Positions 1 to 25,435 of a stretch of DNA of 31,698 nucleotides are shown here, in pieces; position 1 is the first letter of the stretch, and each line of letters begins with the position of its first letter. A program made the position numbers and the translations under genes. The notes beneath the pieces are model-generated. The model saw only the letters and a program-made list of their open reading frames with translations, did no database searches and was not told the origin of the DNA. This DNA comes from a virus (taxonomy: Duplodnaviria; Heunggongvirae; Uroviricota; Caudoviricetes). The DNA is taken from IMG/VR virus record IMGVR_UViG_2565956729_000013, positions 1-31,698 of that record; one strand, 5' to 3'.

Positions 1-612
1 TTTTTTTATCAGTGCTGCAACCTGATTTAGTGTGCCCGTATAAAAAAAACGCCACACCGGACACGTGTTTTTCTGAATTGCGGCCTGCTGGTCGGTGATT
101 TCCTGTAGTGCCTTATCTCTCGCGATTCTGAACTGATTCAGAGACGAGGATAATGTTTCCGGAGATACAGCGGTCGGGATCGCAGCCTGCGCAATAGTCG
201 CTGCCCGCGTCATGCTGCGGATGGTCTGTGTGGACAGCGTGACCTCTGCAGGAAGTGTGGTTACAGGTTTTGCAGGGAGCTGCATTTTACTCACGGCCAG
301 CGAAAGCTGGCTGGAGATCATGCGGGACATTCTTCCCACTTCCGGCAATGGAAGTGCACCTGAAAACTGTCTGGCCAGTGATAAAAACTCGCCTGCAGAC
401 GGGGCGCAAAATAACAGCGCCACAACGTCTTTTTCAGTGCTTTCTGTCAGATAAGGTAAAAGCGCGGATACAGCATTATCCGGGCTGAGATAACGCCCCG
501 ATGGTGTAATGTTTCCCGTATTTTCTGACCATGGATGGAGGCAAACCATTGAACAGGTGATGGCCATGGGGGCCGGGCGCAGAATGGCGTGCTCCCATAC
601 AGAATATTTCAT
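1..612 (-). CDS. hypothetical protein, 3' end outside window (at least 203 aa)
   Basis: ATG at 612..610 (MKYSVWEHAIL...) preceded by AGGA-type RBS; frame stays open to position 1 by manual translation. Absent from ORF track because no stop lies in the window. Directly downstream of second fibre gene. Confidence 0.5.
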   Translation of the reverse strand, partial: MKYSVWEHAILRPAPMAITCSMVCLHPWSENTGNITPSGRYLSPDNAVSALLPYLTESTEKDVVALLFCAPSAGEFLSLARQFSGALPLPEVGRMSRMISSQLSLAVSKMQLPAKPVTTLPAEVTLSTQTIRSMTRAATIAQAAIPTAVSPETLSSSLNQFRIARDKALQEITDQQAAIQKNTCPVWRFFYTGTLNQVAALIKK

Positions 613-636
613 CTCATTTTCCTGTACGTTCAAATG

Positions 637-3165
637 TTATCCCATTCCGTTCTGACGCAACGTTGTCCCTGCAAGTGTTTTTATAACCACAACACAGGGG
701 AGCAACCCATTATCTGCGCCGGCAATTTCTTCCAGTGTTGACATATCCAGTGCATAGTAAGGTTTATCAGGCATCACCACCTGTATTCCGATAGTGATTG
801 TTCGCGCATTTGCAGAGACAGAGCTGACAAAATACTGCGCTGGAATGTACTGTCGGTTCTGGTTCTGATAGAGATAACGCGGCTCAATCTGCGCTGAAAC
901 AGCGATTCCGATGCCGCCAACTGAGGATTGCCCGACGGGGTTTGATACATCCAGCTTCAGGGTATAAACACGCGAACCATCGGGCAGGCTTTTAAATGAA
1001 TCCAGACTGGAGTTCAGGGTGCTTACAAGCATTTTGGGGATGATCGGGTGAGCGCCATCAACAAACAGAGATTCTGATTGTTTTTTCAATAAATTTGTAG
1101 CAGCAGAAGAAACTGCAGGTACAAAGTTTCTGTGCCATGTTTGCGTTGTTGCATTGTACGTAAATGTAACGTTTTTCCCTGCAAATAACGCTTCCGGAGC
1201 ATCTGAAACCTGCGCATCCTGCGTAAGAAATGATGTTCTCGTCACGTCCCTTTTCGGTGTGATTGACAGGCGGCAACCATCAACCAGCCCCGGCGCTATT
1301 TTGAACTGGAGATATGAAAGTGCAGAGTCATTATCAATAAACAATACGGTGTCATTGTTGAGGTTATCCACAACCACCTGGGCGTTATTGACGGGGGTAA
1401 TGTGCCGGATTTCTCTTTCCGGAAAGACAATATCTTCATCTCCAACAACGGAGCGACCATTAATTCGTATAAAGTCGCGTGTACTCATGCAGGGGACTGA
1501 TCCCCATGCTGAAACTGACATTGCTGATGCAATATCTGAAATTGTTACGGCGGCAGTTTTTCTGATCTGCAGACGACGGAGAGCTGTTGTTGCGGCGGTC
1601 TGTGAGGCTGTAACTTTTGCCACGAATGCAAAAAAGTCGCTCATGGCGAAAGTATCAATGCCTGCGTAATCCGATGTAAATAAATCGGGATAATCTTTCT
1701 GGATGGCATCCAGAACGGATAGTCCATATTGTGCCTGTTCAGCAGGCGTATTCAGCACACCAAAGCGCCACGGAGCCACAGAGAATCGGTCTTTTTGCAC
1801 AAAACGCGCATCGCCCGGGGTATCGGGGTAATCAGCTTCATTGTAATACGTCTTGAATCTGTTCTGGCCCGGAACAAATAATGCCAGCAACCCTGTTTTA
1901 ATTGTTTTCATTGCGTTGGAATATTGCGAGGCAGCATCAGAGTCATTAACCAGTCCGGCCAGAAAGACCAGGGCCCGTAAACCGGCATACACTTCGGCAT
2001 TATCCTGACAAAAACATTGCGCGTAATGAGTATTACCGGGAGCAACGTTTCCCTGAAAGACGTTTACCAGATTTGCGTCAGTATTTAGCTGACGTAAAAT
2101 ATTATTTTCCGCTACCAGTCTGATAATTTCCCATCTGGAATGATTGCCGAGCCCTGAAGGGGTCTGTAACCACGAAGCGTCTGCAATTTCAGCAATACAG
2201 GCAAACCAGAGGGATGGGTAACTGTCTGTAGAATCAGGGGCAACCGGTGAATATAAATCAGCGGCCACATCGGTAAAGAACCATGACCATGATGACGGGA
2301 TCTCTTTACTGGTCTTCCCGAGACATTCAAGAACAGCGGAACCTGTATAAATAAACTCACCTTGTAAGATGCTACTGATATCAGGTGTGGTTTCTCCAGT
2401 AATGCCGGCGATATTTACAAAAAATAGCGTGCTGTTAATCATCACATGCTGTCCGGCTTCATAGCGGAAATTCGTCATGAATGGCGCTGTTATACCGAGA
2501 CGAAAGGCTTTTTCACAAATAACGAGTCTGTCCCTGAGAGAAAAGGCTTTACCTTCGCTTTCATACATTGCAAGAAACAAAAAATACCAGTTAATACCCC
2601 CGGTTGAATTAAGATAGCGCCAGATCCCTGAATAACGCCCGTGGGTTATCTGCATGGACAAAAACTGCTTATTAGCTTCGGTAACCGCATAACGGGTTGA
2701 TACTGCTATGTGATCGCTGATAAAACCCTGAATTGTTTTCAGCTCCTGCGAGATGTCTGTTTGCCAGCTTTCAGGAGGAACAGTAATGTGTGCAGCCTGA
2801 GCCAGTCCGCTATAAATAACAGCAAAATTGCGGATAAGTGTTTCGCCGGTCAGTTTGTGACGAACCGGGGTTTTAATTACGCCGCAGAGTGTGTTGCTGG
2901 GTTGATGGACCAGGCAAATCCAGTCGTAAGTGAATGTCTCGTTATCAGCAACAACGGCACTACAGACAATGCTGTTTGGATCCAGTTTTCCATAGCGCAG
3001 ATTATTTACCGTGTGTGTGATTTTTTCAGGAGGGACAACTTCATCATTTCTGGATGGTTCCCTTTCCATCAGTGCAAAAACAATGGAGTCAGGTCGCGCC
3101 GGTAAATTACTGGCGGCACATTCAGCAACCCATTTCTCAAATGCTTTCGTCAACAGCGCGCTCAT
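637..3165 (-). CDS. second tail fibre / tailspike-like protein (842 aa)
   Basis: N-terminal ~150 aa alignable by eye with the N-terminus of the H-like fibre at 3725..5593 (e.g. KWVAECAASNLPARPDSIVFA vs HWCANQLISGKPARPDTFVFA); C-terminal ~700 aa unrelated. Start ATG overlaps the Tfa stop (TAATG). Confidence 0.75.
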   Translation of the reverse strand: MSALLTKAFEKWVAECAASNLPARPDSIVFALMEREPSRNDEVVPPEKITHTVNNLRYGKLDPNSIVCSAVVADNETFTYDWICLVHQPSNTLCGVIKTPVRHKLTGETLIRNFAVIYSGLAQAAHITVPPESWQTDISQELKTIQGFISDHIAVSTRYAVTEANKQFLSMQITHGRYSGIWRYLNSTGGINWYFLFLAMYESEGKAFSLRDRLVICEKAFRLGITAPFMTNFRYEAGQHVMINSTLFFVNIAGITGETTPDISSILQGEFIYTGSAVLECLGKTSKEIPSSWSWFFTDVAADLYSPVAPDSTDSYPSLWFACIAEIADASWLQTPSGLGNHSRWEIIRLVAENNILRQLNTDANLVNVFQGNVAPGNTHYAQCFCQDNAEVYAGLRALVFLAGLVNDSDAASQYSNAMKTIKTGLLALFVPGQNRFKTYYNEADYPDTPGDARFVQKDRFSVAPWRFGVLNTPAEQAQYGLSVLDAIQKDYPDLFTSDYAGIDTFAMSDFFAFVAKVTASQTAATTALRRLQIRKTAAVTISDIASAMSVSAWGSVPCMSTRDFIRINGRSVVGDEDIVFPEREIRHITPVNNAQVVVDNLNNDTVLFIDNDSALSYLQFKIAPGLVDGCRLSITPKRDVTRTSFLTQDAQVSDAPEALFAGKNVTFTYNATTQTWHRNFVPAVSSAATNLLKKQSESLFVDGAHPIIPKMLVSTLNSSLDSFKSLPDGSRVYTLKLDVSNPVGQSSVGGIGIAVSAQIEPRYLYQNQNRQYIPAQYFVSSVSANARTITIGIQVVMPDKPYYALDMSTLEEIAGADNGLLPCVVVIKTLAGTTLRQNGMG

Positions 3166-7749: not shown

Positions 7750-9835
7750 GCAGCTCCATCCATTCATTAAGGTGGGCCGGGGATGCATCCTGCACATTGA
7801 CATTGACCACGCGACGGGAGTTATCAATTGTGGTCTGGCTGTCGCTGTTATTTTGCATTTTTGCCGCAATGCCACCTGGCCCGGCGCTAATAACTTTTCC
7901 ACCGGTTAATACAGAACCCTCACTGTTATCTGTAATTTCTGGTACATCAATATTTATACCCGGGAGCATATTCAGCTTGTCAGCAATCCATCTGAATGCT
8001 GAGCTGAACATACCGATAATTGTGCGCCATAGTCCTGAAAATAATTTATTAATCAGACGGACATAATCCTGAAATATTTCCAGCGGTGAGCGGGTGGAAA
8101 AATAATTAATAACGGCATCCCAGCCGCTTTTAATGCCTTTCCAGGTATTGCCGAACCATACAGCTATATTTTTTATGACACTGGTTACCCACTGAAAAGC
8201 GGCTGTATCCATCAGTGCCGCTTTGATCTCATCCCAGCGGGTAATCAGAAAATAAATGCCCACGCCCAGCGCAGCCAGTGCCAGGATGATTAACGTTATC
8301 GGGCTGAAAAGTAGCTGAGTGGCAACGGCTGCGCCACCGGTAACAGCGGTATAAATTTTCATGGCCACAGCTGCAGCGCCCAGTGCGGCAGAATAAAGCC
8401 ACATACCGATGCGTTGCAGTTTCAGCAGTGCAATCTGAATTTTGGCCCTGACATTGTGCGCCCCCATGGCGATACTCATCGCCAGATATAATGCCCTGAC
8501 CATGCGGGCAGTAGCACAGAACGCCAGCATAACCACTTTCAGGGCACGATACAGAAAGATGATTAATTTCAGTGGTGCGATTGCGGCCATCCAGACCATG
8601 CGTAATCCCACCCAGATAAATTTCGCCACCCCCATTACGATATTGACCGTTGCGCCAACCGCCGCAACACCAATAAGTGCCGCGCTTAATAAGCCGATTG
8701 CACGTGTGATGTTTGGATACAGACGCAACCAGGCAACAAAGGATTTACCGCCTTCGTTGCTTTTCTGGATGAATGGATACAGAACGGGTAACAGTTGTGT
8801 GCCAATTTCAATGCGAATGCCGTTAATAATCGCAGCGGCCTGTTCCCACGGATCGGCCATGGCTTGTGCCATTTCGACAGCCTTATCCATACCTTTGATA
8901 TTGCCCAGCGTGGCGATGTTCTTTTCCAGTCCGCCAATGTCTGCATTGAGCAATTTAATCATGGCCACAGCCTCATCGGAGCCAAAAGCGCTTTTCAGCA
9001 AATCAGAGTCAGCCACTTTTGACAGATCACCAAATTTGCCCCTGATAAGTTTCATGATCTCGACAACACTTTTCATCGTGCCGTCTTTATTCACGAAATT
9101 AAGCCCCAGCTTTTTCTGTGCTTTACCAACGGATGCCAGGAAGGATTTATATTTTGTACCAGCCTCGCTGCCACTCATGGTTGCCTGCAGTTGCCCCAGT
9201 ACGGCGAACTGCTCGGCCGCATCAATACCGGCTGCTTTTGCGCTGGCACCCAGTGTGGTGAATGCCGCTGACATGTTATCGCCGGTTGTTTTAAACATTT
9301 GCACGGCAGTGGCGGTTTGTCCGGCGATCTGCTCCACCCATTTACTTTTTCCCATGGCATCAGCCTGGTCTTTAAATATGCCGTACATGGTGCCCATGTA
9401 GGCGGTAATGGTCTGGCTGCTGGATTTGGTTGCTGCTGCCACTGTTGCTGATGCGGTGGTGAAGCGGGACAGCTCATCGTCAGTTAACCCGGCAATGGCT
9501 GACTGGATGTCGTAAGAAGCACGCACAAAATCCTGCGCAGCTCCGCCGTATTCCATAGTGAAATCAACGGCGGCGCGGCTGAGTTTACGCAGTCCGGACT
9601 CTGCGACGCCCAGTGATTTCACCTCACCGAGCGCCCTGTCCATTTCAATGGCTGGCATCAGTGCGCCCTGAATGGCTGCACCCACTCCCCAGAGCGCAGC
9701 GCCTCCGGTAGCAATGTCCCGAAAAGCTCCCCGACTTGTTGCAGCAAATCCCTGAACCTGTCGCCCGGCTGCGCGTAACGGCCTTGTCAGGCGGTCTGTC
9801 AGTTCAAGAAGTAATTCAAGGCGCTGTTGTGACAT
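7739..9835 (-). CDS. tail tape measure protein
   Basis: 698 aa, Ala/Gly-rich with central hydrophobic segments; start ATG overlaps the stop of the chaperone frameshift frame (TAATG). Confidence 0.85.
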   Translation of the reverse strand: MSQQRLELLLELTDRLTRPLRAAGRQVQGFAATSRGAFRDIATGGAALWGVGAAIQGALMPAIEMDRALGEVKSLGVAESGLRKLSRAAVDFTMEYGGAAQDFVRASYDIQSAIAGLTDDELSRFTTASATVAAATKSSSQTITAYMGTMYGIFKDQADAMGKSKWVEQIAGQTATAVQMFKTTGDNMSAAFTTLGASAKAAGIDAAEQFAVLGQLQATMSGSEAGTKYKSFLASVGKAQKKLGLNFVNKDGTMKSVVEIMKLIRGKFGDLSKVADSDLLKSAFGSDEAVAMIKLLNADIGGLEKNIATLGNIKGMDKAVEMAQAMADPWEQAAAIINGIRIEIGTQLLPVLYPFIQKSNEGGKSFVAWLRLYPNITRAIGLLSAALIGVAAVGATVNIVMGVAKFIWVGLRMVWMAAIAPLKLIIFLYRALKVVMLAFCATARMVRALYLAMSIAMGAHNVRAKIQIALLKLQRIGMWLYSAALGAAAVAMKIYTAVTGGAAVATQLLFSPITLIILALAALGVGIYFLITRWDEIKAALMDTAAFQWVTSVIKNIAVWFGNTWKGIKSGWDAVINYFSTRSPLEIFQDYVRLINKLFSGLWRTIIGMFSSAFRWIADKLNMLPGINIDVPEITDNSEGSVLTGGKVISAGPGGIAAKMQNNSDSQTTIDNSRRVVNVNVQDASPAHLNEWMELHAY

Positions 9836-10316
9836 TACGTTCCCTTAAAGGCGCGGATAATGCCGTTATTGACGGCGATACCCATATTTTCCCAGTAGTG
9901 GTTATCCAGCCAGACGGCAGCAGCCAGTGACTGTGGTGAATCATCTTCACCGGGCAGCCAGTGGCGGCGCAGGATCAGCATCCTGGTAAGGTCATTGCGA
10001 TCAATGGCCCTCAGATGGCTTTTTATTTTTTTACGGTGATTTCCACTTCCGGCACAAACTCGTTATTCACGGCAGTTGCCAGACTGGCCGGCATTCCCGG
10101 TTTTTCCAGCAACTGGTTCAGCAGATCGCGGTGCTCTTTAATCACGATGCGGCGCAGGTAGTTTTTCAGCGGTGCAATTTTATTGTCCGGCATGAAGTCG
10201 TTCTGCAGGTCGTTGTAGTCTTTCACCGTCGGGATAAACGTCAGTTCATGCTCGCCGACCTGTAAAGTGATGGCGTTCTCTGCGGTGGTTTGGGTGTTTT
10301 TATCGTTCATCATCAT
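9835..10316 (-). CDS. tail assembly chaperone E+E' fusion via programmed -1 frameshift (predicted)
   Basis: The -1 frame from the A7 run (10032..10026) is open for 63 codons (IKSHLRAIDRNDLTRMLILRRHW...AFKGT) and stops at TAA 9837..9835, overlapping the tape measure ATG. Confidence 0.6.
10023..10316 (-). CDS. tail assembly chaperone (P2 E-like)
   Basis: 97 aa ORF directly upstream of the tape measure gene; ends GTA AAA AAA TAA, i.e. slippery heptamer A_AAA_AAA at the stop. Confidence 0.7.
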   Translation of the reverse strand: MMMNDKNTQTTAENAITLQVGEHELTFIPTVKDYNDLQNDFMPDNKIAPLKNYLRRIVIKEHRDLLNQLLEKPGMPASLATAVNNEFVPEVEITVKK

Positions 10317-10380
10317 GTCCTGTTAATGTCAAGAATAAGAGGGCTTAATAAGCCTGCAGGAAGGCTTATTAAGCGTAAAA

Positions 10381-10722
10381 TCAGCGCACACCGTCGTGCT
10401 CAAGGCTGAAATGATTGCCATCCGGGCGGTTTTTAAAACGACCGCCCCATGTGCCGCCGAGGGATTCCCAGTACTCGCCCAGTTCGCGGTAAGCCTCTGT
10501 GCGGGTCTGGTATTCACCGTTAATAAACAGATTAAAATCCACCGCCAGTCGCTGGCAGTGCAGACTGTTGGTGATGCCTGATCCCTTTTGTGCGTTGAGT
10601 TTTGCCTGCTCTGGCGTGCGGTACGCCTCACCGAACGTCAGGCCATAACCGCGCTGATGGGCAAACTGGATGAGTTTTCCGATCATGACGGTAAATTGTT
10701 GTTGCTTATCGGAGAGTTTCAT
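10381..10722 (-). CDS. endolysin, peptidase M15-type (L-alanyl-D-glutamate peptidase-like)
   Basis: 113 aa with His/Asp...His metal-ligand pattern (SLHCQRLAVDF ... GNHFSLEH); strong RBS AAGGAG. Confidence 0.75.
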   Translation of the reverse strand: MKLSDKQQQFTVMIGKLIQFAHQRGYGLTFGEAYRTPEQAKLNAQKGSGITNSLHCQRLAVDFNLFINGEYQTRTEAYRELGEYWESLGGTWGGRFKNRPDGNHFSLEHDGVR

Positions 10723-10831
10723 TTTTGCTCCTTACGGGGTTGTTGAGGTTTACGCAACCAGCGCCACAACGCCCGGATAATTTTCCAGACAATGGCAGCG
10801 GCTTTCTGATCCCTGCGGGACTGCATTGCGG

Positions 10832-11128
10832 TTACTCCTCTTTGTTCTCTTTTTCGTCCAGCTTCCGGCGCATGTGGCGCAGGAAGATTTCCACAATCTG
10901 GTAACCGGCAACGCCCATTGCGGTACCTGCGCCGGCAATGGCCAGTGGGTCAAGGTTCGGGTAGCGAACCAGCAGGGCGGCGGCAGAAACACCCAGCGCG
11001 CTCCCCAGCAGGGTTCGGCCCACAAACAACCGCAACGTAATCGGTTCTGCGCCAGCCAGCACCCGACTTGCGGCAGCGATTCCGCCCAGAATGCCCAGGG
11101 TGATGATGGTGCGTTCATGCTCCTGCAT
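10832..11128 (-). CDS. holin (putative)
   Basis: 98 aa with 2-3 hydrophobic helices and a highly charged C-terminus (RRKLDEKENKEE); adjacent to endolysin. Confidence 0.6.
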   Translation of the reverse strand: MQEHERTIITLGILGGIAAASRVLAGAEPITLRLFVGRTLLGSALGVSAAALLVRYPNLDPLAIAGAGTAMGVAGYQIVEIFLRHMRRKLDEKENKEE

Positions 11129-11131
11129 GGT

Positions 11132-11587
11132 TTACCCCATCAGCCCGCGCACGTCGTTCTCTGAGAGAACGGGCACGCCGTTGATACGCACAAAGTCAGG
11201 GCTTGCCACCACGTACTTGATTTTGTGCGTGGTCAGATCCGCGCTCTCGGTGTCAATGCTTAACAGGTTCGAAAGCATCAGCTCGCAACCGAAGGCTTCA
11301 ACGCGGATTTCTTCGGTGCCCGTGTTGGCGTAAAACACAAAATCCATTGGCGGCAGGTCACGCCACGATCCCGCCTGAGCCGCCACTTCCCCGAGCTGGT
11401 TAAAGCTGCGGGTACTCATTTCGATTTCACCTTCGGCACTGACAGGGCCGCGCAGTTTGCCGTCAGGGATGCCACGGGTTTTGGCCACGGCGCTTTCGTC
11501 GCTGATATCCAGCGAAATGTTTTTTACGCGGATATCCGTTCCGCCAACATAAACATCAAAGGCCATGCCGTTAATGCGGGTTGTCAT
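11132..11587 (-). CDS. tail tube protein (putative)
   Basis: 151 aa ORF immediately after the sheath-like gene (ATGA overlap); assignment positional. Confidence 0.55.
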   Translation of the reverse strand: MTTRINGMAFDVYVGGTDIRVKNISLDISDESAVAKTRGIPDGKLRGPVSAEGEIEMSTRSFNQLGEVAAQAGSWRDLPPMDFVFYANTGTEEIRVEAFGCELMLSNLLSIDTESADLTTHKIKYVVASPDFVRINGVPVLSENDVRGLMG

Positions 11588-12732
11588 GCGTTCTCCTCCA
11601 GAGATTTGTCCAGCTGAATGCCCACTTTGATGGTTTTGGGGCAGGCGTAAGGGCGGACAACAATGCTGATGCTGACCGTCTTTTCGTCCTGCCAGGTGAT
11701 GGCCACATCGCCTTTTTGTGGCGATTTCACTTCGCCCGGAAAGGTGACACCGTTAATCTGCGTGGATTTCGCCATGGTACGCAGCGGGCGGGCAAACAGC
11801 GTTTCATGTGCGGCAATGCTGCCCGGTGTGCTGTTCAGTGAGCGATCGGCAATTTTGGGGATGGCCATCAGCCGTACGCGGCGCGCCACCTTATCAGCAA
11901 TGCGGACATGTTCGATGACGTTGTAGTCCCCGCCTTCCACCTCAAGTGTCACGCCGTCGGCCCAGTAAAGGCCGTCATAGTCGGCATACCACATGGGCAC
12001 GCTGTAGCGGGCGGTTGCCAGCGCCTGCAGGGTGGCGAGATCAATTGCCTGTCCCGCGCTGTCCTTCGGGCGCTCTGTGGTTTTCAGTGCGGACAGCGCC
12101 CCGGTTGCCACACGTGCCGGACTGTCAGCAATGGTGACGGCGCTGTTACACAGGCGACCAGCAAGAACGCCCGGTTCAAATCCAAAAATCTCCGGAACCA
12201 GCATGACCTGCGGGGCTGCAATGCCTTTCTGTAGTGCGGTCAGTTCGGCAACGTATTCCGCCCAGGTTTTGCTGTGGTTGTTGGCGGCGATGGTCAGGAT
12301 GAACCAGATGCGGCGCTGATATTTATTGATGATGGTCTGACGTAACGCCTGTATGGCGTTGATATCATCCTTCGTGCTGACCGGCTCGGTGATCACCACG
12401 CCTTCAACTGAAACAGTTTCCTGAGCCGCCAGTACGGCGTTCTGCCATGCCTGGCAGGCTGGCGTCGCTTCTTTGCCCCTGCCTGCTTCCGGCAGAACGG
12501 CAACATAGAAAAAGGCATTCTGTCCGGCATTGGTCAGTGCTGACTGAAGGAAATTCTTCAGCGGGCTGGCGTTCGTTCCCAGCAATTCATCCAGATCACT
12601 GTTGGCATTGACCGGCAGAACCTTACCTTTGTTGTTTTGTGCATTGCCCACAAACAGCAGCGTATTTTCCACGCCGTCCGGCGAGCTACTGAACGTGTTG
12701 TACTGTTCAATCGTGACAGATGGCCAGGTCAT
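11584..12732 (-). CDS. tail sheath protein (putative)
   Basis: Likely ATG at 12732 (MTWPSVTIEQY...) with AGGAG RBS; 382 aa; track ORF extends to 12864 but overlaps the upstream gene. Assignment positional. Confidence 0.6.
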   Translation of the reverse strand: MTWPSVTIEQYNTFSSSPDGVENTLLFVGNAQNNKGKVLPVNANSDLDELLGTNASPLKNFLQSALTNAGQNAFFYVAVLPEAGRGKEATPACQAWQNAVLAAQETVSVEGVVITEPVSTKDDINAIQALRQTIINKYQRRIWFILTIAANNHSKTWAEYVAELTALQKGIAAPQVMLVPEIFGFEPGVLAGRLCNSAVTIADSPARVATGALSALKTTERPKDSAGQAIDLATLQALATARYSVPMWYADYDGLYWADGVTLEVEGGDYNVIEHVRIADKVARRVRLMAIPKIADRSLNSTPGSIAAHETLFARPLRTMAKSTQINGVTFPGEVKSPQKGDVAITWQDEKTVSISIVVRPYACPKTIKVGIQLDKSLEENA

Positions 12733-12751
12733 AATTTGTCTCCTGATTTTG

Positions 12752-13465
12752 TTATCTCGTGCCGCCGTAATGCAGGCTGCGCAACTGCGCTTCCAGAATG
12801 CGGGTAAATTCAGCATCGCTGGCGCCCAGAAATGCGCGGGAGGGGATTTTGATTTCCCATACACGCTTTTTCTGCTCGCCTTTCAGAATGCTGATCACCA
12901 GCCCGGCCTGCGCCATACTCATGTTTTCCATAATCCATTTCAGGGAGGGCTTTCTGCGTCCCCTGCGTCCGGTTTTTTTGCTGACCGCTCCGATGGGTGC
13001 CCGAAACCCCAGAGAAAGAAGCCGCTCCGCCTGCCGTCGTGTGGCGGGGCGGGTGCGCATGGCTTCGTTGTCCCGGCGCTTTGTGGCGCGGCCTTTGATG
13101 ATTGCGCCATGCTGTTGTACCCATGCGACCGCCCCACCATGAGAGCCGGTGTTGTAATTCCCTTTTTTAAAGAAAAGGCGGACACTTTTCCCGTTGCCGT
13201 CAATCCTGATGGCCAGCAGTTTCGGCAGTCCCAGCAGCATTTTGTTTTTATACCTGCCGCTGGCTTTATCCGGTCTTTTTCGTGGTGCCCAAGCTGCCCC
13301 CTCCGGTGTTCGCTGTGCTTTCACATTGCGTCGAGCAGCCGGTATCAGGCCGTATTTCGCAATGCGAACCAGCAGCTTTCTGGCCTTTGCCGGTGGAAGT
13401 TCTGCCTCTCTGATGGCGCGACGAACCTGCCGGAGTTGTGACTCGTTAATCACGGGGCGCGTCAT
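12752..13465 (-). CDS. virion morphogenesis / tail completion protein (P2 S-like or Mu G-like)
   Basis: 237 aa basic protein; start overlaps the upstream stop (ATGA); lies between head completion and sheath genes. Confidence 0.55.
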   Translation of the reverse strand: MTRPVINESQLRQVRRAIREAELPPAKARKLLVRIAKYGLIPAARRNVKAQRTPEGAAWAPRKRPDKASGRYKNKMLLGLPKLLAIRIDGNGKSVRLFFKKGNYNTGSHGGAVAWVQQHGAIIKGRATKRRDNEAMRTRPATRRQAERLLSLGFRAPIGAVSKKTGRRGRRKPSLKWIMENMSMAQAGLVISILKGEQKKRVWEIKIPSRAFLGASDAEFTRILEAQLRSLHYGGTR

Positions 13466-21257: not shown

Positions 21258-21572
21258 TCACTTCGGGAAAAACGCCTGAATATTCTTTTTCACCTGCTGC
21301 ATATGGGGGGCGTTGTCTGCTGCTGGTTGCGCCGGTTTTTCAGGCTGTACTGGTAGCGGTGGCATCCGTATTTCGTCTTCTGACCATTCTGCCAGCGAAT
21401 ACGCCAACGCGGGGGTGCGTTTTATAAGAGCCAGTCCGGCCAGAAAAGCCGCGCGTTGTGCGCGGCTGCGTTCGGAGGCTGGCAGGCTGTCGAGGTAACT
21501 GCACGCCTCCCGTTCGCTCTTGACGACGGCGGGCTTCAGATAGAAACTTATTCGTCTGGTTGGTGTCGTCAT
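21258..21572 (-). CDS. parR: ParR-like centromere-binding protein
   Basis: 104 aa; DSLPASERSRAQRAAFLAGLAL resembles recalled R1 ParR DSIPQGERSRLNRAALTAGLAL; AAGGAG RBS; directly downstream of parM. Confidence 0.7.
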   Translation of the reverse strand: MTTPTRRISFYLKPAVVKSEREACSYLDSLPASERSRAQRAAFLAGLALIKRTPALAYSLAEWSEDEIRMPPLPVQPEKPAQPAADNAPHMQQVKKNIQAFFPK

Positions 21573-21576
21573 TGAT

Positions 21577-22536
21577 TTACTCCTTGTCCATTGCGTACAG
21601 CCCATTAACCAGAGCAAACTGTGGCACCCCGTCCGCGATGAAAGTCGCATTAACTCCGCAGGCTTCGCGGATAGCGGGTGCCACAATCTTCGCTCCTCCA
21701 CCTACAACCATCACCCGCCCGTAACCCGAAAAACCCGCCAGCGCGCGGATCACGCGTTGTTTCAGTGTTTCCTCCTTTTCACGAATAACTGCCATCAGGC
21801 TGGCGTAATGTGCGTTATTGTGGATGTGCTGGCGCAGCCAGGCTTCATCGTGGCGATGTTCGATAATGGTATTAGCGATGTGGTGACTGGTACGCATACC
21901 GTTGGTGGCCATCACCGACAGCACGGCATCGGCCATCAGAGAAACGCCTACGTGTGGATCGCAAAACACCTGGCTGATACCTGCCAGTTGCCCCTGAACC
22001 TTTGCCACATCCAGCGTGGTTCCGCCCAAATCCACAATCAGCAGGGATTCAAACGGACTCATGTCAGCCAGCGCTTTAAAGCCAGCCGGAATGGATTCAG
22101 GCATAACCCGCACGTTACGGATAGTGAATGCCTCACCGTTCTGGTACTCCACCGGGCGCATAACGTTCGCTTTTTTGCGGTTGATGTTGGCCATGTCCGG
22201 CTGTGCGTTTGTGTCGAAATACTCGCTCAGTGGCAGGGTGACAACCACATCCACCTCCTGAGGCGTGATGCCTGATTTGACCAGCGCGTGATGAATGGCA
22301 ATGACATTCACATCGCTGTACTGGTATTGCGTGTCGGTCGTCTGGACAAAGCGATCGCTGACCGGATCAAAACCATAGCGCACGCCATCAAGCATGTAGT
22401 TCGCGGGCTGCGTGCCACCGAACGGCGCAGACCATTCCGACTTGAAGCTGTTCGGGCTGATGGCGTTGCGGCGTTCGCCGTTCTCAGTCCATGCCAGTTT
22501 GATGTTGGTGGAGCCGTCGTCGATACAAATTTTCAT
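21577..22536 (-). CDS. parM: ParM/StbA actin-like segregation ATPase
   Basis: 319 aa; motifs IDDGSTNIKLAW, YSDVNVIAIHHAL, VMPESIPAGF, LIVDLGGTTLD, GYGRVMVVGGGA match recalled plasmid R1 ParM along its full length. Confidence 0.85.
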   Translation of the reverse strand: MKICIDDGSTNIKLAWTENGERRNAISPNSFKSEWSAPFGGTQPANYMLDGVRYGFDPVSDRFVQTTDTQYQYSDVNVIAIHHALVKSGITPQEVDVVVTLPLSEYFDTNAQPDMANINRKKANVMRPVEYQNGEAFTIRNVRVMPESIPAGFKALADMSPFESLLIVDLGGTTLDVAKVQGQLAGISQVFCDPHVGVSLMADAVLSVMATNGMRTSHHIANTIIEHRHDEAWLRQHIHNNAHYASLMAVIREKEETLKQRVIRALAGFSGYGRVMVVGGGAKIVAPAIREACGVNATFIADGVPQFALVNGLYAMDKE

Positions 22537-22564: not shown

Positions 22565-22679
22565 TCGTTTACGGGATTCTGAAATCCCGTTCTTGCCTGT
22601 TTTGTACGCGCCTCATATTTCGCCGCGTGTTTTTTGCTCATTTACGGGATTTGTGAATCCCGTTTTTGTCTGTTTTTTG
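22565..22679. repeat. parC-like centromere/promoter repeats upstream of parM
   Basis: Two ~40-bp direct repeats (22565..22604 and 22638..22679), each with a dyad ACGGGATT-N4-AATCCCGT (22570..22589; 22643..22662), then a T-rich CTGTTTTGT segment. Confidence 0.55.
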
Positions 22680-25435
22680 TTTCCACTGGTTAGTCCACCC
22701 CGCAGCAGCTCTGCTTTGCGGCGGACGCGTTCAGTGGTTTCACTGATTCTCTGTGCGTGCTCTGCGTCACGGATGGCACGCAGCATGTCAGAAAGCACGG
22801 TAACGGGTGTTTTCATGGTGTTCTGGTCCTGCTGAAGTGTGGATGCCAGGCGTGCGGCGGCTTCGGGGTCTGATGCCCTCAGCTGTGCCAGATAGCTGGC
22901 GACCGGGTTATGACGGATCTCCGTGCTGCTTACGCCGTGATTACGGCTCAGGCGCTGCCAGAGCTGCGTGATTCGGCTGTCCGGGCGGGTATCCGGTTTG
23001 CGTACAATTTCAAATCCCTGCGGTGCAATGATGCTGCCGTCAACGTACAGACTGCCGCCCCGTAACAGGTGCTGCATCTGCTGTTCACCGATATGCAGGC
23101 CAAGGGATTCAGCAGACTCCCGCCATTCTTTAGCGAGTAATTCGTGGTTATCAGGCAAAGGCCGCTGCTGTTTGCGGCTCTGTGTCCAGCTCTGCATTTC
23201 ATCACTGCTGTTTTTTGCCTGTTTGTCACGCAGCGAACGCATCAGCGCCCGGCGTTCGTGCCGTTTCAGTGAGCGCATCCATTCATTCACGTCAACGCTG
23301 TCAGGAAGCTGCGGCCACGGTGCTGGCCGTTCTTCCGGCTGTTCTGTCCCGTTGTTGTCCGTTTCCTGTACACGGGGACAGTTATTGCCACGAGTCCAAG
23401 GGGCGGCAGGGCCGCCCTGAAGGTCAAAACCATTTTCGTGGGCGTTGTCTTCCGGTTCTGGTTTACGTCTTACCAGCTTCCAGTTATCCGGATGCGTGCA
23501 CACACGGGAGGATTCCCCGATGAGTGGTGACCAGATCCCGTAAATCTGTACGCTCTGTTCGCCGTAATCATTCAGCTCATCTGCGAGGTCGTAGGCGGTG
23601 CGAATCAGGTAGTCTTTGCGTGGAACAAGTACGCCGCCCTGTTTCTCAATGTAGGTGGCAAAACACCCGGCATCAGCGGCAGCGAGTACCGCATCCATTG
23701 CATCATCCTTCAGCCGTTGTGGGCCTTCCGGGTTGCGTGCCATCTGGCTGGCAAGGCGGCGCAGTTCACGCCACACCTGACGGGAGGGGATGCCAAAGAA
23801 CTGGAACTGGCGGACCCGGTGAAGGCGCGCCCAGCCGATGGCGCGTTCCACACTCTCGGCCATTGATTTTCCGGTTTCGTGGTCAACGCGTGGCTTGCCC
23901 GTTTTCGGGTCGATGCCATCCACGGCGCGGCTGTCCAGGTTCTTTCCGATGTAGGTGGCGATGTAGCTGGTTGGCGTGCCTTTTGAGCCGTCGACGTACT
24001 CCGCCTTAAAACGCGGAGTTATGTCATCGCCCAGCTCGTGGCGGTCTTCCTGAATGGCAATATCGCAGACGTGGGACACGATGGTTTCAATCTCGTCAGG
24101 ATGAGCAAAAACCATCATGTGCCAGTGCACCGTGCCGTCATGATGAGGCTCCACCGTGCGGATGCCATACCAGCGCAGGCCGTCGCGGTTCAGTTTTTTG
24201 CGGACCGCCGCAAAAAACGTGTTAACCAGGTAATCGCTGGAGTCGCGCATAGTGGCCCCGTTCCATTTGGGATTCGGATGACCGTTCTCCGTTGTTGCGT
24301 GGTATTTTGACGGGCAGGTGACAGTCAGAAACACCGCTCTGTCGCCACGGGCTTCGGCCAGAAGTTCCAGCCCCTTCATGGTGGCCATCATTTCTGCCTT
24401 ACGGTGAACCGGGTTACTTACTCCCGCGTAATACACTGTATCGAGATCAATCGTGAACCCGTCTTCGTTTTCCAGCATGAAACTTTTCAGGAAATCGCGT
24501 GTTTTCTCGCGCTGTGCGCGAAACTCGCTTAACGCGTTCTGGCTCAGATAGGGTGATGTTTTTCTGGAAACCAGACAGGCGGCGCGGAGTTGTTCTTCTC
24601 TCCACTCGCAACGTAACAGCCACAGTTTGCGTTTCCACCAGTCCGCACAGGTCAGGCGAAGGATTGCGCCCGGCAGCAGCTCCGTGTCTGGTTCGTTCTT
24701 CCGGTCTTTGTCTGTTGTCAGTGCGTCATAATACGGCGGCACGGTGTGCAGATGTAACGCCATGCGGGCCAGCATCTGATACACCTTCAGCGTTATATCC
24801 ATAGTCAGCTCGCCATCGGTCGCGCCAAAGCCATCGCAGAGCTTTTCGAAGGTGCTGCTGAACATCGCCGCCGTCATGGTGGCCAGCGTCTGTATCTGGT
24901 GCTTGTTGAGCTGTGGCAGGTACAGCAAATCGTCCAGGCGTTCACGTCCGGCAAGGGAGCGATAACCCGGAGTCAGCCAGTGACGGTCGGTGCAGTCCAG
25001 ACGTTCGAATATTTTGCGCAGGGTTCCGTGCGCGTAACGTTCAGCCTGCCAGTTCTTTTTTCCTTTCCGGCGATCGGCTTCCTGTTTTTTGCGCAGGAAG
25101 GAGAGGTGGCGAATAAGCGGATCGCGCAGATAGGACGGCAGCAGGCGCAGCGAGGCCATGGCTTCATCCACCGCGCCGCGTGCCTGTCTTCTGGCGTCTC
25201 CTGCCAGCGTGATGGTTTTGTCCTGTTTTTCCTGTGCGTCCAGGCTTTTATTAATCAGGTTGCCCAGCGGCGTGGCGGAGAACGCCGCATCAGCCATTTC
25301 CTGGCGGCGCTCGTTCTCTGCCCGGTAGGCATCCAGCCAGGAGGAAAGCGCGGATTCAGGAGCGGGGATCCCCGTTCCTTCACGCCCCACTGCGTGGCGC
25401 GGTTGTTGCCAGTCCCTGATGTACTCTGCCGTCAT
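22613..25435 (-). CDS. replication initiation endonuclease (P2 A-like rolling-circle initiator)
   Basis: 940 aa; metal-binding motif HWHMMVF typical of the family; 3' end overlaps the second parC-like repeat. Confidence 0.8.
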   Translation of the reverse strand: MTAEYIRDWQQPRHAVGREGTGIPAPESALSSWLDAYRAENERRQEMADAAFSATPLGNLINKSLDAQEKQDKTITLAGDARRQARGAVDEAMASLRLLPSYLRDPLIRHLSFLRKKQEADRRKGKKNWQAERYAHGTLRKIFERLDCTDRHWLTPGYRSLAGRERLDDLLYLPQLNKHQIQTLATMTAAMFSSTFEKLCDGFGATDGELTMDITLKVYQMLARMALHLHTVPPYYDALTTDKDRKNEPDTELLPGAILRLTCADWWKRKLWLLRCEWREEQLRAACLVSRKTSPYLSQNALSEFRAQREKTRDFLKSFMLENEDGFTIDLDTVYYAGVSNPVHRKAEMMATMKGLELLAEARGDRAVFLTVTCPSKYHATTENGHPNPKWNGATMRDSSDYLVNTFFAAVRKKLNRDGLRWYGIRTVEPHHDGTVHWHMMVFAHPDEIETIVSHVCDIAIQEDRHELGDDITPRFKAEYVDGSKGTPTSYIATYIGKNLDSRAVDGIDPKTGKPRVDHETGKSMAESVERAIGWARLHRVRQFQFFGIPSRQVWRELRRLASQMARNPEGPQRLKDDAMDAVLAAADAGCFATYIEKQGGVLVPRKDYLIRTAYDLADELNDYGEQSVQIYGIWSPLIGESSRVCTHPDNWKLVRRKPEPEDNAHENGFDLQGGPAAPWTRGNNCPRVQETDNNGTEQPEERPAPWPQLPDSVDVNEWMRSLKRHERRALMRSLRDKQAKNSSDEMQSWTQSRKQQRPLPDNHELLAKEWRESAESLGLHIGEQQMQHLLRGGSLYVDGSIIAPQGFEIVRKPDTRPDSRITQLWQRLSRNHGVSSTEIRHNPVASYLAQLRASDPEAAARLASTLQQDQNTMKTPVTVLSDMLRAIRDAEHAQRISETTERVRRKAELLRGGLTSGNKKQTKTGFTNPVNEQKTRGEI

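Follow-up and report, generated by a model that had tools for sequence, protein, structure and literature searches.

A cationic, tryptophan-rich peptide gene in the spanin-less lysis cassette of HP1-like Escherichia and Citrobacter prophages

How might a prophage complete the lysis of its host when its lysis cassette holds a holin and an endolysin gene without a recognisable spanin? This question is raised by the IMG/VR virus record IMGVR_UViG_2565956729_000013 (Caudoviricetes), whose positions 1 to 31,698 were analysed here as one stretch of 31,698 nucleotides, in the following called the window. Positions 10,381 to 11,128 of the window comprise exactly two annotated genes, for a holin and an M15-type endolysin, which are located on the minus strand like all genes of this part. 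An earlier reading of the locus from its sequence only had described this pair as a lysis cassette inside the tail operon and overlooked that the 109 nt between the two genes are filled exactly by an open reading frame (ORF) of 35 codons. What is new in the present analysis is a clade-wide loss of the spanin genes Rz/Rz1 that is coupled with this unannotated cassette gene for a cationic amphipathic peptide, which is conserved in kind. The peptide is tentatively regarded as a candidate for a disruptin-like function in place of the spanin.

The lysis slot and its missing spanin genes

According to the sequence-only reading, the cassette is flanked by the tube and tail chaperone genes, a position that neither P2 nor HP1 uses for lysis, and this was taken as a sign that a lysis module had been inserted into the tail module. 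The neighbours are indeed a Phage_HP1_Orf24 tube gene (PF10772) and a chaperone gene (PF10963), and the position does differ from that in P2 (L-X-Y-K-lysA-lysB-lysC-R-S, with FI-FII-E-T elsewhere), the sole differing phage among those compared. P2 likewise has a Peduoviridae late-operon cassette, but it lies between the head-completion/X genes and the tail genes R and S and encodes another endolysin, K, and the spanins LysB/LysC. The statement on HP1 was wrong, however, because its RefSeq gene order (sheath orf23, tube orf24, hol, lys, orf25 for an Rz-like spanin, orf26, orf27) places holin and endolysin in the same slot. The order tube, holin, M15 endolysin, Rz-like spanin, chaperone and tape measure is found, within the same late operon, in Salmonella phage SI7, Cronobacter phage ESSI-2, Yersinia phage vB_YenM_324 (YenM324) and the Escherichia phages ESSI2_ev129 (ev129) and ev239. 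These relatives were reached by protein searches; a megablast search with positions 9800-12900 against 50,697 phage records gave no match. Since HP1 and five related Peduoviridae phages keep holin and endolysin in the identical slot, the position between tube and chaperone represents the ancestral synteny of HP1-like Peduoviridae, and the proposed modular insertion finds no support. Components and placement of the cassette were already known for this group and are ordinary on those terms.

The window differs from all six relatives in what surrounds the endolysin gene. In the relatives the holin gene abuts or overlaps the endolysin gene without an intervening ORF, an Rz-like i-spanin gene follows directly after the endolysin gene in each of the six phages, and an o-spanin gene is annotated or was detected in ESSI-2, YenM324, ev129 and HP1. 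In the window, Rz/Rz1 is gone with a hairpin-bearing spacer in its place, and the 35-codon ORF parts holin from endolysin. According to the alignment, approximately 400 nt of Rz/Rz1 sequence are missing after the endolysin stop codon in comparison to SI7, ESSI-2 and YenM324; the distance from this stop to the chaperone start is 64 nt in the window. Among the spanins of the relatives, the Rz-like protein of ESSI-2 has a hydrophobic N-terminus and its orf15 product an LSAC lipobox, while in HP1 an Rz1-like lipoprotein ORF overlapping orf25 was found in the present analysis. NCBIfam gave no match for the spanins of two relatives.

The sequence-only reading had also reported that no lipoprotein or Rz-like ORF lies nearby, and this was borne out for the entire window. 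Two six-frame lipobox scans of the window, one strict and one relaxed, detected no plausible lipoprotein; a comparable lipobox pattern used as positive control recovered the Rz1 proteins of HP1 and YenM324 and missed those of SI7, ESSI-2 and the ev-phages. Searching the window by tblastn with 13 Rz, Rz1, LysA, LysB and LysC proteins from relatives resulted in nothing below an expectation value (E) of 0.01, and a PHROG screen of its other larger ORFs gave no spanin match. Hence, neither partner of a two-component spanin (an o-spanin with lipobox, an i-spanin with N-terminal transmembrane segment and coiled coil) was found in the window, nor was a unimolecular spanin of the T1 gp11 type, there being no plausible lipobox ORF in any of its frames. 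The all-frame search included spanin genes possibly embedded in other genes, and it found none: alternative-frame ORFs over holin and endolysin are not conserved in relatives, and two of them, of 122 and 100 amino acids, were rejected as embedded genes as they are broken or absent there. A 45-aa alternative-frame ORF with an LVAC lipobox (12084..12221) was likewise discarded as o-spanin, because its mature part would have 22 amino acids, it lies inside the sheath gene and it failed the relaxed scan.

The spacer that follows the endolysin stop directly, where relatives have Rz/Rz1, forms an AU-rich hairpin (Table 1). Over 10 loci, RNAalifold gave 13 pairs, four of them with compensatory double changes, at -19.3 kcal/mol, and the structure was scored as terminator-like. 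Folding of the spacers between spanin and chaperone in Rz-bearing phages revealed no equivalent hairpin; there, the o-spanin gene reaches the chaperone gene. The hairpin may act as an internal terminator or attenuator, or as an mRNA-stabilising element, ahead of the chaperone gene. Moreover, the spacer sequence 'CTTGACATTAAC' resembles 'GTTGACGAAATTAAC' of ESSI-2 in the alignment, a likeness suggestive of a retained 3' end of Rz1.

In a neighbour-joining tree based on the sheath, tube, endolysin and chaperone proteins, all spanin-less loci form one clade that is nested among Rz-bearing phages. Because of this nesting, and because the distant HP1 also carries Rz/Rz1 in the same slot, the loss of Rz/Rz1 is, as read from the protein phylogeny, a derived state. 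The spanin-less arrangement is present in E. coli (41 of 5,426 complete genomes, with a nucleotide identity of about 94%), in C. freundii, in many Logan and ENA contigs, and in E. albertii NBRC 107761, whose holin identity of 98% is the strongest hint at where the window originates. The window is best regarded as an Escherichia prophage closest to E. albertii, and the clade consists of Escherichia/Citrobacter prophages.

The small open reading frame between holin and endolysin

The 35-codon ORF starts 5 nt past the holin stop codon, with the Shine-Dalgarno sequence GAGGAG 8 nt upstream, and its stop codon overlaps the endolysin ATG as ATGA; the AAGGAG site of the endolysin start is situated inside the ORF. 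The encoded peptide has a net charge of +9 and three Trp residues. Its 18-residue hydrophobic moment amounts to 0.78, a value reached by 0.2% of shuffled sequences, and neither a transmembrane segment nor a signal sequence was detected in it. AlphaFold2 predicts a single helix (residues 3-24) followed by a disordered basic tail, with a mean confidence (pLDDT) of 73 that rises to 89 for the block 11-20. PGAP leaves the ORF unannotated, whereas gene calling in Logan assemblies did report it. The peptide matched none of the Pfam or PHROG families above threshold; in Pfam, sub-threshold chance matches were obtained for the peptides, e.g. to the 'WRW' ATP synthase subunit f. NCBIfam, searched with the window allele, gave none.

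The window-type ORF is intact in alleles from E. coli, E. albertii, C. freundii, and metagenome and Logan contigs. Six lineages of the clade carry orthologous ORFs, at 18-86% identity, whose start and stop are coupled. With relative loci such as Logan or metagenome contigs numbered L007 to L030, the diverged versions read MNTTDRQWRVIATLWRYGQALWRLWKKLRNSNRRE in L017-L019, MTPSEKQKLTAIIWRVICAAWRHLSKRRGKK in L023 and MKLTDRQQKRAAIAWKILRTLWRWLCKPQKTSKDKNETL in L029, whereas L020 encodes 41 (or 28) amino acids. All these slot ORFs start at or beside the holin stop, with overlap in L020, L023 and L029, and end on the endolysin start. They have charges of +7 to +9, 1-4 Trp residues and hydrophobic moments of 0.58-0.78, and all but L020, with its one Trp, contain several Trp in a conserved W-x6-W register. 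Close alleles from E. coli, E. albertii and Logan give a ratio of nonsynonymous to synonymous polymorphism (pN/pS) of 0.12-0.50, and comparison to L029 and the C. freundii version (L027) gives 0.28-0.39; values of 0.12-0.5 point to selection acting on the peptide itself. A non-coding spacer would hardly account for several independent open frames whose physicochemistry stays constant and whose boundaries are coupled, hence the ORF is very probably a real, conserved gene.

The peptide family is small. A search of 5.8 billion proteins with the window-type query, padded to 40 residues with X, found four close clusters at 90% identity, and a profile search among 1.84 billion representatives found two 50%-identity clusters plus a spurious match in a protein of 2550 amino acids. 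Searches by tblastn with the window-type and L017-type peptides against phages, and with the window-type peptide against plasmids, gave none or noise at E 8. A mosaic was observed at L013-L015, where the holin has diverged from that of the window (12 amino acid changes; pS 0.31 for L013) and the endolysin is near-identical (pS 0.03); the recombination breakpoint appears to lie at the holin/peptide junction.

Holin, endolysin and neighbouring genes

The identities that the sequence-only reading had proposed for the two annotated genes could be confirmed, both proteins exceeding the Pfam thresholds. The 98-aa protein matches PF04550 (Phage_holin_3_2) with E 5.5e-28 and 97.6 bits against a cutoff of 25, covering model positions 1-85 of 86, and the holin family phrog_175 with E 1.3e-32. 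It is a P2-Y/HP1-type holin by family, from which hole formation is predicted. Two clear hydrophobic segments (7-27 and 34-56) are accompanied by a weaker third one at about 61-83, which was recognised by eye and lies below threshold, so that the topology is a predicted one. Peduovirus (P2-like) and PSP3 holin genes were among the tblastn matches of the window holin; NCBIfam made no holin assignment, apart from one sub-threshold chance match. The holin ends in a charged tail, RHMRRKLDEKENKEE, and this distinctive tail extension of the clade coincides in the alignment with the peptide ORF. Among alleles the holin pN/pS is 0.00-0.38, mostly 0.06-0.19. The holin is less than 60% identical to every holin among the 50,697 phage records. 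Because it shares 44-59% identity with the holins of the nearest phages, whereas the endolysin is 77-80% identical to those of SI7, ESSI-2 and YenM324, the holin itself has probably been exchanged.

The 113-aa protein belongs to PF13539 (Peptidase_M15_4; E 1.4e-11, 45.2 bits against a cutoff of 25) and matches the endolysin PHROGs 1768/465, while NCBIfam gave no match. From established knowledge on the LAS family, we take H55, D62 and H104 to be zinc ligands. The endolysin motifs S-x-H55-x6-D62 and D101-x-x-H104 align with SxH...AVD and D-x-x-HF of the solved L-Ala-D-Glu peptidases 8q2g and 2vo9, with weak pairwise E values of 0.06-0.9; these structures were alignable in a permissive PDB search only, and default phmmer against PDB gave no match. 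The endolysin is probably an L-alanyl-D-glutamate peptidase, an activity predicted from these similarities. It has no transmembrane, signal-arrest-release (SAR) or hydrophobic N-terminal segment and is therefore predicted to be a soluble, holin-dependent enzyme. Its pN/pS among alleles is 0.05-0.19, and with 113 amino acids it differs in size from HP1 lys (186 amino acids, 561-nt coding sequence).

Table 1. Features of the lysis cassette and its surroundings in the window (all on the minus strand).
Feature	Position	Strand	Basis
Sheath (DUF2586), upstream of tube; mechanical ORF of 426 aa, GTG start	11584..12864	minus	
Tail tube, 151 aa, upstream neighbour	11132..11587	minus	PF10772 Phage_HP1_Orf24, E 1.7e-50; phrog_1182 tail protein; same position as HP1 orf24
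Holin, 98 aa, P2-Y/HP1-type	10832..11128	minus	PF04550 and phrog_175
Cationic Trp-rich ORF, 35 aa, MQSRRDQKAAAIVWKIIRALWRWLRKPQQPRKEQK	10719..10826	minus	unannotated; Shine-Dalgarno site and ATGA overlap; candidate disruptin-like
Endolysin, 113 aa, soluble M15 (LAS-type) metallopeptidase	10381..10722	minus	PF13539 and endolysin PHROGs
13-bp hairpin, GCTTAATAAGCC-loop-GGCTTATTAAGC, T-rich tail	10343..10374	minus	RNAalifold
Tail assembly chaperone, 97 aa, downstream neighbour	10023..10316	minus	PF10963 Phage_TAC_10, E 2.7e-25
DUF6890 small gene, between chaperone and tape measure	9835..9981	minus	PF21830, E 1.3e-23
Tail tape measure protein, 698 aa	7739..9835	minus	PF10145; phrog_28

The rest of the window encodes a complete P2/HP1-like prophage with fibres, baseplate, head completion, small terminase, capsid, scaffold, large terminase and portal, and further partition-like genes, a replication protein, regulators and an integrase. 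A release module of a type 10 secretion system or tailocin was rejected on these grounds, as capsid, terminase, portal, tail, replication and integrase genes are all present. Some further observations were made on individual genes. The mechanical sheath ORF overlaps the tail-S gene and its homologues have 382 amino acids, so the true start is probably the ATG at 12732. In one Logan contig (L007, 3517..3807) chaperone and DUF6890 were called as a single 96-aa product with both Pfam domains, and the distance to the tape measure start is about 185 nt shorter, which suggests a deletion fusing two frames that the chaperone frameshift region normally links. An 842-aa ORF (637..3165, minus strand) located downstream of the gene for tail-fibre assembly matches phrog_33169 (unknown function) at full length with 2052 bits; its first approximately 175 residues resemble tail-fibre N-termini, which gives it the appearance of a gene for a second, alternative fibre or receptor-binding protein. 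Finally, two genes with partition-protein PHROGs (phrog_2515 and phrog_691, ParB/ParA-like; 21258..22536, minus strand) occur in this integrating P2/HP1-like prophage, adjoining a 940-aa ORF (22613..25435) that is presumably the replication gene.

A candidate disruptin and the rival explanations

The only characterised disruptin is phiKT gp28, a protein of 56 amino acids with a charge of +7, predicted amphipathic helices and no signal sequence, which is encoded between the endolysin gp27 and the holin gp29 of a phage without lipoprotein gene (bioRxiv 10.1101/515445). According to Holt et al. (bioRxiv 10.1101/515445), gp28 can complement amber mutants of lambda Rz/Rz1, and its behaviour resembles that of LL-37. 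Experimentally, a disruptin is defined by lambda Rz/Rz1 complementation, membrane association and bactericidal activity of the synthetic peptide (10.1101/515445). The 35-aa peptide agrees with gp28 in being small and cationic (+9 versus +7), in its predicted helix and in its gene position between holin and endolysin of a lipoprotein-less phage. It has the disruptin descriptors of less than 80 amino acids, a charge of at least +4, no signal or transmembrane segment and a predicted amphipathic helix, and its ORF belongs to the lysis cassette of a phage in whose window no lipoprotein or spanin gene was found. Both phages differ in other respects, phiKT being a virulent podovirus with a T4-type glycosidase endolysin and the window a temperate myovirus with an M15 peptidase, and the window peptide is Trp-rich. 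A purely physicochemical likeness exists to LL-37 (37 amino acids, +6, amphipathic helix, moment 0.89 versus 0.78); LL-37 and other cationic amphipathic antimicrobial peptides are of unrelated origin. With the features shared with gp28 but no sequence similarity to it, the peptide is an analogue of gp28 and not a homologue.

Lysis might then proceed as follows. The holin would accumulate in the inner membrane, trigger and form holes, the size of which is inferred, and these holes would release the soluble, signal-less M15 L-Ala-D-Glu peptidase, which would degrade the murein. At this point the sequenced relatives would finish lysis with the Rz/Rz1 two-component spanin encoded directly after the endolysin. 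In the spanin-less clade the peptide, made in the cytoplasm, could reach the envelope via the holin lesion or on its own, where the cationic helix would bind and weaken the outer membrane, which would rupture after loss of the murein. None of the loci examined combines the peptide with Rz/Rz1: six Rz-bearing phages are without the peptide, and six spanin-less lineages have it. Taken as a whole, the explanation of a cassette in its ancestral slot that lost Rz/Rz1 and carries a peptide acting in a disruptin-like manner is put forward tentatively, as an almost evenly balanced case. By analogy to gp28, it is conceivable, somewhat less firmly, that the peptide replaces the spanin at the outer membrane. 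With more reserve still, peptide and diverged counterparts might form a second disruptin family, unrelated to gp28, that has arisen in or was captured by the cassette and replaced Rz/Rz1.

Several findings weigh against a disruptin-like role. BLASTP gave no alignment between peptide and gp28 at E <= 100, and the peptide is shorter (35 versus 56 amino acids). The association with spanin loss goes back to what is essentially a single phylogenetic event. No other stretch of the cassette varies as much as the ORF, which evolves much faster than its neighbours; 20 of 108 sites differ among close alleles, pN/pS reaches 0.5, and homology to the versions in L017, L020 and L023 can barely be detected (41-43% nucleotide identity). 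In the L013-L015 allele, read in five contigs and found in three separate samples, a 1-nt deletion shifts the peptide frame after residue 20. Finally, two lineages from metagenome and Logan contigs (L021/L022 and L030), which are nested in the clade, have neither peptide nor spanin, and their holin stop overlaps the endolysin start directly. On the tree these cases look like secondary losses of the peptide. They imply that the peptide is dispensable for the persistence of these prophages; since prophage persistence needs no lysis genes, however, its loss from some lineages is compatible with a role in the remaining ones.

Among the alternatives, the peptide could be a factor of lysis timing at the inner membrane (antiholin-like, holin-triggering or depolarising), with no dedicated outer-membrane step. 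The ORF follows the holin gene immediately and is translationally coupled to it, the extended charged holin tail of the clade appears together with it, and cationic amphipathic peptides can depolarise membranes; the authors of the gp28 study also note possible premature holin triggering. Small accessory lysis factors at the holin level are known, for example P2 LysA/LysB and LambdaSo Lcc6, and the relatives devoid of peptide and spanin would fit a non-essential modulator. The peptide has no transmembrane segment, however, unlike known antiholins, LysA and Lcc6, and a timing role leaves unexplained why it occurs only where Rz/Rz1 is absent, hence we regard this alternative as unlikely.

Comparably unlikely is that the ORF has no lysis function at all and represents a fast-evolving recombination junction from the holin swap, kept open only as a bridge for holin-endolysin coupling. 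These prophages would then simply be spanin-less and be released by shear, low divalent cations or slow leakage, or be partly lysis-defective. The high variability, the frameshifted allele, the two lineages without ORF, the mosaic breakpoints around holin and peptide (pS 0.31 for the L013 holin versus 0.03 for the endolysin) and the presence of two peptide clusters only among 1.84 billion representative proteins are in line with such a junction, and approximately 13-15% of Gram-negative phage genomes are without identifiable spanin in the literature. On the other hand, the diverged versions all keep an open frame, coupled ends, a charge of +7 to +9, 1-4 Trp and amphipathicity, a constant physicochemical character that a coupling bridge does not need, and their pN/pS of 0.12-0.5 indicates selection at the protein level.

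It is rather improbable that an unrecognised outer-membrane disruptor or spanin is encoded elsewhere in the prophage, in which case the peptide would be irrelevant to that step. Several small genes of unknown function in the early region could encode it, window positions 1-636 and the sequence past the window lie outside the characterised part, and the L021 and L030 lineages must exit somehow; yet in the 31.7-kb window, reaching from the fibres to the integrase, no plausible lipobox ORF, Rz-like coiled-coil membrane protein or spanin PHROG was found, and the lysis genes are clustered in every relative examined. A recent insertion of the lysis module into a tail operon originally without it, for which one could cite the different location of the P2 lysis genes and the lower conservation of the probably exchanged holin (44-59% versus 77-80% for the endolysin), is hardly credible, because HP1 and every HP1-like relative examined, from six genera, have holin and endolysin in this slot.

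A January 2026 paper has named as an open question whether spanin-less phages, i.e. approximately 13-15% of Gram-negative phages, generally encode disruptins, and stated that disruptin-type peptides are not predictable from sequence. Should the peptide not act as a disruptin, it would still be useful to know that the cassette lies where HP1-like phages ordinarily have it and that the spanin was lost by plain deletion. If the second disruptin family is real, it would represent the first natural, phylogenetically traceable swap from spanin to disruptin. The peptides are moreover natural Trp-rich candidates for cationic antimicrobial peptides. Its phages being amenable to work in E. coli, the clade lends itself to a natural comparative test, a handle that phiKT lacks, with a built-in comparison of close relatives with Rz/Rz1 and no peptide, several lineages with peptide and no Rz/Rz1, and two with neither. 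A test of this clade could show whether a cationic peptide of 35 amino acids can replace a spanin, which features of its sequence are important, and by what evolutionary route a swap of this kind comes about.

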